A DNA stretch of 64,000 nt. Origin: Eledone cirrhosa. Lineage: Eukaryota. This document shows, piece after piece, positions 9,093 to 11,286 of this stretch. How positions within the stretch are numbered: position 1 is the first letter of the stretch; every line of letters begins with the position of its first letter. The position numbers and the translations under genes are program-made. The notes under the pieces are model-generated. The model was not told the origin of the DNA. It did not search any database and was given only the letters and a program-made list of their open reading frames with translations. The DNA is taken from the NCBI GenBank assembly GCA_964016885.1, contig OZ024752.1:42036001-42100000 (forward strand), in the 5' to 3' direction.

Positions 9093-9148
9093 ACTGCCTG
9101 ATGAGGTCGTAGCCATTCAATGGCTATCATCGAAATATATATAGCAGT
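9093..9148 (+). ncRNA. Minimal type I hammerhead ribozyme (Penelope-type)
   Basis: ACUGC-CUGAUGA-GGU..UAGCCAU/AUGGCUA..AUC-GAAA-UAUAUA-UA-GCAGU; palindromic stem III segment; AATAAA directly downstream. Confidence 0.85.
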
Positions 9149-9339
9149 AAATAAAGGATTATGAGTTAGTTCATGCAATTGACTTATGTTTCGTCACTCT
9201 CTCTCTCTCTCTATATATATATATATGTATATATATATATAGTGATGGAACACTGGAAGCTAATATCCGTAGTGGTAGAGCACTCAGTCCATGGGACGAG
9301 TTAGGTAGAAGTGGTTACACAACAGTTAGTTCACCATAC

Positions 9340-9377
9340 CGAGAACAATTGTTTCACTTTAGCGGATCCTCAGCTCG
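9340..9377 (-). ncRNA. Minimal hammerhead candidate with weak stem II
   Basis: Minus strand: CGAG-CUGAGGA-UCCGCUAAAGU-GAAA-CAAUUG-UU-CUCG; lies in a TA-flanked element with a 28-bp inverted repeat (9361-9424). Confidence 0.55.
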
Positions 9378-9707
9378 TAATGGACATGATTGTACCCATG
9401 TCTATTACGAGCTGAGGATCCGCTTCTATATATATATATATATATATACATATTGTTATACTTGGGGAGGGTCATATTGTTGTAATAATATTGCTAGCCA
9501 GCACCACAACCACCACCATCACCACCACCACCACCACCACCACCACCACTGCACCTAGCCACCACTACTTGCACCACCACCAACACCACTGTTCCTATCC
9601 CCAACACCACCAGTACCTTCTCCACCACCATCAGCACCACCACCATCAGCACCACCACCATCATCATCATCATTGTGCCAAACTGAAAGGATATTGAAAA
9701 GTATATA

Positions 9708-10122
9708 CAAGGTGTGGACGATATTTGTTCGCAATTTTCAACTGCTAATTTTATGCAAATTCTTTTTACTTCCGTCGTCACTCTTGTCTTCATAAAAACA
9801 GTGACTATATTTCCATTATTTATTTTCAGAATAATTGATTATGAATAATTTTGAACCTCCAAATTTGTGGAAGAGACACGGAGTTCCTCTTGGAATCCAC
9901 GTTGGGAGGACAAATAAGGAAATTTCAGACTTTCTCAGCGACAGCAGGAGAATGGTGGAAAAGGTCTGAAAGGAATTGGAAGATCCAGGATTCGACTACG
10001 AAGCAACATCAGAGAGGAAAGACCAACTGACCCAAGTTTGATAAATAAATCTTAAAAAATAAAACTACTGTGTTACTTTTTCCGAGACAGTAATCTTGCG
10101 AACAAATATCGTCCGCACCCTG
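9708..10122. mobile_element. Tc1/mariner-type MITE
   Basis: ~27-bp TIR CAAGGTGTGGACGATATTTGTTCGCAA / TTGCGAACAAATATCGTCCGCACCCTG, flanked by TA. Confidence 0.8.
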
Positions 10123-10176
10123 TATATATATATAAATATATATATAAGAACAAAAGATGGTTAAAAGAGTTCCATG

Positions 10177-10247
10177 TATTTTATTATGCGCATTTCAAAA
10201 ACAAATATCATCATGCAATAATATTTGTGTTTTCATCAGATAAAATA
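10177..10247 (-). ncRNA. Minimal type I hammerhead ribozyme
   Basis: Minus strand: UAUUUUAU-CUGAUGA-stem II-GAAA-UGCGCA-UA-AUAAAAUA; same family as 11767-11837. Confidence 0.8.
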
Positions 10248-10477
10248 GGAAGACATGATATGAAGGTTAAAAAACACTTGTGGATAGTGCAGTTTTAAAT
10301 CAACATATATATATATATATATATATATATATATATATATATATATATATATATATATATATATATATATATATATATATATATAGAGAGAGAGAGAGAG
10401 AGAGAGAGAGAGAGAGAGAGAGAGATAGATAGATAGATAGATAGATAGATAGATAGATAGATAGATAGATAGATAGA

Positions 10478-11088
10478 TATATTTCTTTATTAGCCACAGG
10501 GGCACAAAAGAAGGGGACAAATACAAAGGGGGAAGTTTACATACAATAAAAACGTGTAAAATGTTATCACAGATGGAATTTAAAAGTTAGTCGATTTTCC
10601 CCAATAGAGGGAGACAGTTTATATGGGTAACACAGACCCCCGAAAAAAATGTGCAACCCTCATCTCCAGGAGTACGAAGAGCTTGTACTCCTTTCCTCTC
10701 CTCCTCCTTTTCCTCAACCTACAGGCTGATATAGAGAGAAGGCCCATTCACTCGGGCCATTCTCGCCACTTTCACCCACCTTTCATAAAACTTGCTGGGG
10801 TACAGCACCTCTCTCTCCATCCTGATTCTTCTTCCAAAGTGGTATTTGAAAAAAAGAATCAGTTGTTGGCCGGAGAGAAAGGTGTCTGACCTCAGCCCTT
10901 TCAACCTTGTCCACCATACAACCTCTTTCGCCATAGCTATCACACAAAGGAAAACCGCCTCTCCTTCGTTTTTGAAGGAGGGTGGCGGTTTGATCATGAC
11001 AATGGACTCGGTGGTCAACTGGATTGGTCCCACCCGCGACAATAGTCGTTCTACATAGCCCCACAGGTCAGTGACGCCCGGGCAGTCT
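10478..11088 (-). mobile_element. L1/Tx1-clade LINE 3' fragment inserted in (GATA)n
   Basis: ORF2 C-terminal-like CP..TDLW...AKEVVWWTR...ERW, then a 3' UTR ending AATAAAGAAA; (GATA)n on both sides; related 3' UTR at 672-920. Confidence 0.7.
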
Positions 11089-11231
11089 AGATAGATAGAT
11101 AGATAGATAGATAGATATGATTCCAGTTCCTCAGTGAAATAACAACCCAACCAGGAACTGGGCATATCAGAGTATTGACAAGGTTAAACACCTCAAAAAC
11201 ATGTGTACTCGTCTCTACCACACTAATTCGG

Positions 11232-11286
11232 ACTGCCTGAAGAGGTTACAGCCAAAGATGGCTGTCACCGAAATATATATAGCAGT
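11232..11286 (+). ncRNA. Minimal type I hammerhead ribozyme
   Basis: ACUGC-CUGAAGA-GGU.ACAGCCA/UGGCUGU.ACC-GAAA-UAUAUA-UA-GCAGU-AAUAAA; stem II covaries with the 9093 copy. Confidence 0.87.

Follow-up and report, generated by a model that had tools for sequence, protein, structure and literature searches.

Two hammerhead motifs in the Eledone cirrhosa genome as the probable 3′ ends of truncated Hydra-clade Penelope-like retrotransposons

Two hammerhead motifs and the elements around them

The window, meaning the whole stretch of 64,000 nucleotides analysed here, belongs to a microsatellite-rich assembly of 3.0 Gb. An earlier note on this DNA had placed two hammerhead motifs at 9093-9148 and 11232-11286. 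Both are found at these coordinates, and both are real and type I hammerhead-shaped. The motifs and the elements that surround them are listed below, where family names refer to the repeat families described in this work.

9093..9148, + strand: type I minimal hammerhead A, predicted cut after 9143
9093-97/9144-48, + strand: stem I of hammerhead A
9098-9104, + strand: core of hammerhead A
9105-15/9121-31, + strand: stem II of hammerhead A, with a C.C mismatch at 9108/9128
9132-35 and 9135-42, + strand: GAAA and palindrome of hammerhead A
11232..11286, + strand: type I minimal hammerhead B, predicted cut after 11281
11244-54/11259-69, + strand: stem II of hammerhead B, with a U.C mismatch at 11247/11266
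11273-80, + strand: palindrome of hammerhead B
9025..9197, + strand: family A, assigned as a 5′-truncated Hydra-clade Penelope-like 3′ end, a short end without tail whose sharp 3′ end is common to other copies
11115..11339, + strand: family B, assigned as a 5′-truncated 3′ end of a sister Hydra-clade element, of which locus L061 holds a longer copy
11340..11439, + strand: optional tail of family B (~100 nt), followed by (TA)n
10142..10294, - strand: single truncated copy of family C, hammerhead at 10180-10244
11547..11880, both orientations: head-to-head inverted pair of truncated family C 3′ ends, with a hammerhead in each
11593-11657 (- strand) and 11770-11834 (+ strand): hammerheads of the family C pair, palindrome ATGCGCAT

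The two motifs were identical in 46 of 56 columns and presented the same order of parts: a 5-bp stem I, the core CTGANGA, stem II, GAAA, TATATA, TA and the 3′ strand of stem I. As the earlier note had described, stem I (ACTGC/GCAGT), the core and GAAATATATATA were common to both, N7 was T in the first motif and A in the second, and the stem II pairings could be drawn in each; the cut is predicted from the sequence after 9143 and 11281, at an AUA site. Of the stem II changes between the two copies, one was two-sided (U-A to C-G) and the other one-sided (G.U to G-C). A hammerhead pattern matched twice in the window, against a mean of 0.00 across 100 shuffles. The likeness between the two copies reached a z of 13.1 over the hammerhead, far above that of the immediate flanks (z 2.1 upstream and 2.3 downstream, values matched or exceeded in 32 and 18 of 1000 shuffles, respectively), so that the flanks of these two copies are indeed largely dissimilar. 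The further claim that only the hammerhead is conserved fails at the family level: the tail/5′UTR downstream of it is homologous in the two families, with 100 identities over 144/154 nt, a value reached in 0 of 500 shuffles, and the hammerhead is therefore not the sole conserved part.

The core CUGANGA, the GAAA and the UH cleavage site are those of the minimal type I class, and the stem lengths fit its short stem I of 4-5 bp and long stem II of 7-8 bp as well, with 5 bp in stem I and 3 + 7 bp in stem II around a mismatch. Stem III was an 8-nt palindrome in both motifs, in agreement with the palindromic, monomer-unstable stem III that characterises the class. This palindrome and the retrotransposon-end origin of the motifs had been missed in the earlier reading. 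Between the two sub-stems of stem II there was an unpaired C.C (U.C in the second copy) plus one further pair. The G10.1-C11.1 pair was present in both window copies, with G.U in many family B copies, and stem II directly followed the core with no unpaired base between positions 9 and 10.1. Neither motif matched the Rfam hammerhead models at the gathering score or at E values up to 10.

The copy of family A was located between (TA)n and (TC)n(TA)n, and (GATA)n directly preceded that of family B. They exemplify two alternative 3′ ends, short in copy A and with the tail in copy B; this tail corresponds to the start of the 5′UTR that comes after the upstream repeat in full elements. In total, the window carried eight hammerhead-bearing ends. 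Hammerheads of other families (D-type) were seen at ~37790-38210, where two cores, at 37888 (-) and 38118 (+), belong to a long inverted pair arranged head-to-head, and at 58615-58674 (-). At 2062-2436 (+) lies what remains of a decayed nuclease of Hydra type, with 30% identity to family A. Two short elements between (TA)n runs, one a near-perfect palindrome (8786-8917) and the other with an inverted repeat near 9362-9423 (~9242-9425), are possibly truncated ends of other repeat families. Tandem arrays at 20292-22616, 29955-30488, 59917-60467 and 53688-57917 consist of SINE-like units of 168, 178 and 210 nt plus a 39-nt minisatellite. Families A and B both have AATAAA immediately after stem I and a CCAAT-box-like motif ~130-175 nt upstream of the hammerhead (e.g. 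at L012 and L059), the latter in repeats that are otherwise unalignable.

Coding elements, genomic copies and insertion ends

Longer copies in the genome tied the hammerheads to coding elements. At locus L061 (family B), two direct repeats 4,264 nt apart enclosed broken reverse transcriptase (RT) and GIY-YIG nuclease frames, and at L191 (family A) an 847-aa open frame ended 1.3 kb upstream of the hammerhead and had a partly deleted repeat upstream of it; at both loci the terminal repeat that carries the hammerhead belongs to an element with RT and GIY-YIG. The element measures ~4.2 kb with a 3′UTR of ~1.3-1.4 kb, its ATG lies ~195-210 nt downstream of the hammerhead cut site, and in longer copies of families A and B the hammerhead was found ~1.2-1.4 kb downstream of the GIY-YIG frame. 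Among 30 family A loci picked by their 3′UTR, 9 had RT-thumb matches and 12 had nuclease (EN) matches, and a hammerhead was present in 48 of the 57 family A loci picked by EN or 3′UTR. In longer copies of family C a Hydra-type nuclease lay ~0.7-1.3 kb upstream of the hammerhead, and for families other than A, B and C a protein tie was found at one locus only (L280). At L061, a second, AT-rich Hydra-type element occupied 7830-9771 (-) and 9860-9880 (-), directly upstream of the family B repeat, with an RT 46-48% identical to those of A and B.

The RTs of families A and B were 68% identical over 231 aa (ORF DNA, 71-73%), and the GIY-YIG domain was C-terminal to the RT, which fits the Hydra clade. 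The marks RWK, DKT, CxCX5C, CxxC and CxH have been defined for this clade (Craig et al. 2021, PMC8557442). We found RWK in family B (L061) and RWR in family A (L191), DKT in family A (L125 and L191) and DKA in the one family B copy read, as well as YRDD, the CxCX5C linker, CxxC and CxH in the proteins. The nuclease had no CCHH, and a single Cys stood between its GIY-YIG half motifs. The assignment to the clade is based on these motifs and on a by-eye comparison with the published Hydra alignment (PMC8557442). The RT call has the same basis because the profile and structure searches did not name an RT: Pfam gave GIY-YIG below the cut-off on protein pieces (E 0.0012-0.0016), no RT match, and no match of any kind on the 847-aa frame, and a PDB sequence search matched that frame to no solved structure. 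A search for homologs recovered 322 proteins from 2,973 candidates, with 45-47% identity at best and hardly any of them named; the top one with a name came from the octopod Argonauta hians, as would fit a cephalopod host. A Naiad Penelope-like element, with an N-terminal nuclease and no canonical hammerhead, was ruled out by the C-terminal nuclease and the hammerhead.

In C-terminal GIY-YIG, RWK, DKT, CxCX5C, CxxC/CxH and absence of CCHH, in (TA)n targets and in a sense-strand hammerhead near the 3′ end, these elements resemble Hydra-1_Obim and other elements of the Hydra clade as described in PMC8557442. They differ from those described there in length (~4.2 kb, where the clade tends to stay under 3 kb), in the 3′UTR of ~1.3-1.4 kb and in the tail of ~100 nt. 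None of the rows in File S2 of that paper has their hammerhead sequence, and their protein differs by eye from that of Hydra-1_Obim (PMC8557442).

The assembly proved rich in such motifs. A tight pattern spanning families A and B gave 5,877 + 5,803 = 11,680 matches (control, 0), that of family C gave 22,187, and a broad pattern, with C at the stem II mismatch place and a pyrimidine opposite, gave 95,411 (control, 0), a load of ~32 pattern matches per Mb. The same general pattern with any other base at that place gave 4,183 matches (control, 47), and many among the matches listed look like C-to-T decay. These ~95,000 matches compare with ~9,000 in Xenopus tropicalis (PMC4209133), the descriptors being different, and up to 120,000 retrozyme copies are reported from axolotl (PMC7229834); the count is high but precedented.

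Copies of families A and B were dispersed, with variable 5′ ends and sharp common 3′ ends followed by (TA)n. In the first 30 loci chosen by pattern, (TA)4 occurred within 230 nt of the cut site in 29, and in 28 of those it was positioned at +50-64 or +147-158. Ten of the 30 loci carried the ~100-nt tail, and eight made up four head-to-head inverted pairs, all four with the tail on one copy only. Inverted 5′-truncated partners and a one-sided tail have been described for Penelope-like elements (PMC8557442), and the anole element has its tail between two internal reverse-transcription start sites (PMC11167929). We found no earlier description of a ~100-nt tail in our literature search, on which the published supplements may bear; 30-40 nt is the length usually described (PMC11167929). 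Inserted copies retained the uncut hammerhead plus 50-150 nt, indicating that the template was likely uncut there.

The 5′ junctions of genomic copies showed no pile-up at the cut site in families A and C. Scored by eye, the 5′ ends of 50 distinct family C places (from the first 100 of 454 overlapping rows) lay upstream of the cut site in 28 cases, within -3 to +1 in 6 and downstream in 16. In family A, (TA)6 preceded stem I at 39 places. Of the 30 examined, 18 were TA-expanded stems III, 4 had family A sequence further upstream and 8 started in the palindrome; a single one ran on into the 5′UTR. TA microhomology can account for such (TA)6 junctions, which therefore speak neither for nor against cleavage. 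In some copies (L226-L255, the same 18 of 30), microsatellite-like expansion had lengthened the TA palindrome of stem III. A block of ~28 nt just upstream of the ATG was nearly identical in the 5′UTRs of L061 and L191, and a similar block was seen by eye upstream of the Hydra-1_Obim ORF; it is a candidate protein-binding or translation signal.

Folding, covariation and selection

Folding predicted that the palindrome cannot close stem III within one molecule, where the A15.1-U16.1 pair had a probability of 0.006-0.014 and closure cost 2.7 kcal/mol (probability near 0.01); cleavage would thus need a second copy. Copy B had a z of -3.72 with stems I and II in its lowest-energy fold, and copy A mispaired the core in its own (10.1-11.1 pair probability, 0.34). 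In cofolds the molecules swapped strands and formed dimers joined by an 8-bp stem III. The B-B minimum was a dimeric, fully hammerhead-shaped structure at -42.4 kcal/mol, compared to -17.6 for the monomer, and the A half was mispaired in the A-A and A-B cofolds.

The earlier note had taken the pair of copies as direct evidence of selection on RNA structure. Two copies with one compensatory change are thin evidence, but structural selection is supported across families. Scanned with a descriptor, 160 loci and the window yielded 238 hits (reversed sequence, 0), which revealed further families. From the hits whose stem III insert is 6 nt long and whose cut site is AUA, 16 rows were hand-picked; an irregular row and the shorter types (stem III GAAC, CTAG or CCACTGG) were excluded. 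Examples of shorter hammerheads whose stem III differs in sequence occur at L072:936-980, L149:2727-2767, L079:2351-2391 and L013:845-900. In the 16 rows chosen, 91.3% of the cells were paired (slid controls, 27-48%) and 15 of 20 pairs had two-sided changes, a supportive result rather than a formal test. The catalytic residues and the UH site were invariant across the 16 rows, which were obtained with a descriptor in which the core and stem I are fixed requirements. The rows form about four related groups, and shuffle counts are therefore not probabilities.

The fourth stem II pair was a mismatch, C opposite C or U, in 16 of 16 rows, while its neighbours covaried; window copy B carries the U.C variant. 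By eye, the Hydra hammerheads of PMC8557442 File S2 are without it. Our literature search found no description of a C-C mismatch in hammerhead stem II, though Lunse et al. 2017 may describe it, and no earlier report of a C-opposite-pyrimidine mismatch conserved across families, as these sequences suggest.

When loop 2 and N7 are set aside, families A and B in their commonest forms were identical in 47 of 50 columns (p ~1e-4 against the 72% of the ORF DNA). Variation within family A was measured in 57 loci picked without reference to the hammerhead, from which the query's own copy and two duplicates had been dropped and in which insertions were left uncounted; the nuclease-chosen loci were the best 30 of 150 scored and are likely young. 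Non-CpG variation was lower in the hammerhead (31 of 2,294) than in the flanks (289 of 12,929; p = 0.006). The deficit was in shared variants (11 in the hammerhead and 146 in the flanks, p = 0.003), and private variants were not depleted (20 of 2,294 and 143 of 12,929, p = 0.38). The 45 nt downstream of the family A hammerhead varied no more than the hammerhead itself (p = 1.0), and some family A copies had lost core residues. Altogether, selection on the hammerhead structure is supported by these comparisons. A signal in shared but not private variants points to selection on the transposing source elements, not on these two copies, and single copies are likely to decay neutrally after insertion.

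Proposed mechanism, alternatives and meaning

In our judgement, each motif is a hammerhead-shaped sequence that probably lies at the 3′ end of a truncated retrotransposon copy, from two sister Penelope-like families of the Hydra clade; RNA cleavage by them is likely confined to strand-swapped dimers. A source element would be transcribed from its upstream repeat and its protein would nick (TA)n DNA. Reverse transcription would then start ~50-60 or ~150 nt downstream of the uncut hammerhead, and most cDNAs would stop early, leaving ends of 170-330 nt like the window copies. Cleavage would need a second copy, and possibly the element protein, and would process tandem or read-through transcripts. 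Selection would keep the structure in source lineages. In the published dimer model, single motifs are uncleaved and dimers are cleaved weakly (PMC4209133), and the anole hammerhead cleaves with the element protein present and is dispensable for insertion in vitro (PMC11167929). This model and the protein dependence in anole make dimer-assisted, possibly protein-assisted cleavage the most likely mode, with a mainly structural role as the chief rival.

That rival accepts the same origin, but holds that the structure persists chiefly because it serves the element protein as a signal for binding or folding, with cleavage marginal or dispensable. The uncut hammerhead plus 50-150 nt in inserted copies and the 5′ junctions that do not cluster at the cut site speak for it, as do, in the anole work, mutants that left insertion in vitro unaffected and RNA-seq with no reads starting or ending at the cut site (PMC11167929), and the poor in vitro cleavage of minimal hammerheads (PMC4209133). 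However, the catalytic residues and UH site remained invariant in the 16 rows while the stems covaried, with the reservation that the descriptor requires the core, and the anole hammerhead does cleave with its protein (PMC11167929). We consider a mainly binding role unlikely. A quite improbable extension of our own reading is that the motifs form a distinct subtype: the stem II C opposite pyrimidine would be a docking site for a partner RNA or the element protein, A and B copies, with identical stems I and III, would cleave as heterodimers, and ~100,000 dispersed motifs would act in trans on host read-through transcripts and cut them, the stem III palindrome serving as a family pairing code.

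The remaining explanations fit the genomic data poorly. Type I hammerheads in tandem units of 150-450 nt are widespread in animals (PMC7229834), and such hammerheads have been proposed to derive from these repeats (bioRxiv 10.64898/2026.07.22.740005), so the copies might instead replicate through small circular RNAs, as non-autonomous retrozymes or SINE-like satellites. Both sites lack a tandem array, though, and the variable 5′ ends extend into 3′UTR, EN and RT; no tandem non-coding units of 150-450 nt were found, and the ORF links largely refute a tandem retrozyme, which makes this origin very improbable. It is just as hard to credit a recent exchange of the 3′ module between A and B in place of selection. 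The two families share one genome, identical stems I and III and the same insertion targets, but loop 2 and the spacers differ or hold indels where paired and core positions match, and more distant families retain the core with different, covarying stems. Co-option of both copies by the host as regulatory ribozymes is scarcely credible and was rejected. Being on one strand at a distance of 2.1 kb, the two could form a heterodimer within a read-through transcript; yet they are ordinary members of large families, their closest other copies being 95-98% identical (best of 40 scored each, from 265 and 290 candidates), each departs by one stem II change (9109; 11247) from its own family's commonest form, and the eight ends in the window mark a region rich in them.

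Set beside known systems, the finding is real and explained but ordinary, the dimeric arrangement being already known. Minimal hammerheads in Penelope-like repeats have been described (Cervera and De la Pena 2014, PMC4209133), and canonical hammerheads in Hydra elements are tabulated, including Hydra-1_Obim of Octopus bimaculoides (PMC8557442). Like the metazoan set of PMC4209133, the present motifs are type I with a short stem I, a long stem II and a palindromic stem III, mostly as single dispersed copies from truncated elements with some close inverted pairs. Unlike that set, they have an internal stem II mismatch instead of the unpaired base between 9 and 10.1, a base that is common but not universal, since several rows of File S2 are without it (PMC8557442). 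The Anolis Poseidon element PAc (Frangieh et al. 2024, PMC11167929) likewise has two 3′ ends downstream of an uncut hammerhead, an optional tail and AT-rich targets, but its ORF starts inside the hammerhead, where the present elements have their ATG ~195-210 nt downstream of the cut site. Non-LTR retrozymes (Cervera and De la Pena 2020, PMC7229834) share type I hammerheads and high copy number in animal genomes; they are tandem non-coding units with mostly canonical hammerheads, in contrast to the dispersed truncated ends of coding elements found here. As judged by titles and abstract starts, none of the works listed by a search on cephalopod hammerhead ribozymes dealt with these families, and the word ‘ribozyme’ is absent from the main text of an Octopus vulgaris repeat paper.

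The link between hammerhead and retrotransposon is thus published, and what appears new, from the sequences compared, are Hydra-clade families that differ in sequence, length and tail. These results add such families to the clade and reveal a dense hammerhead load in one animal genome. Many covarying families in a single genome offer ready constructs to address the role of the Penelope-like hammerhead, in which the conserved stem II mismatch and the predicted cross-family dimer would be concrete variables to mutate.
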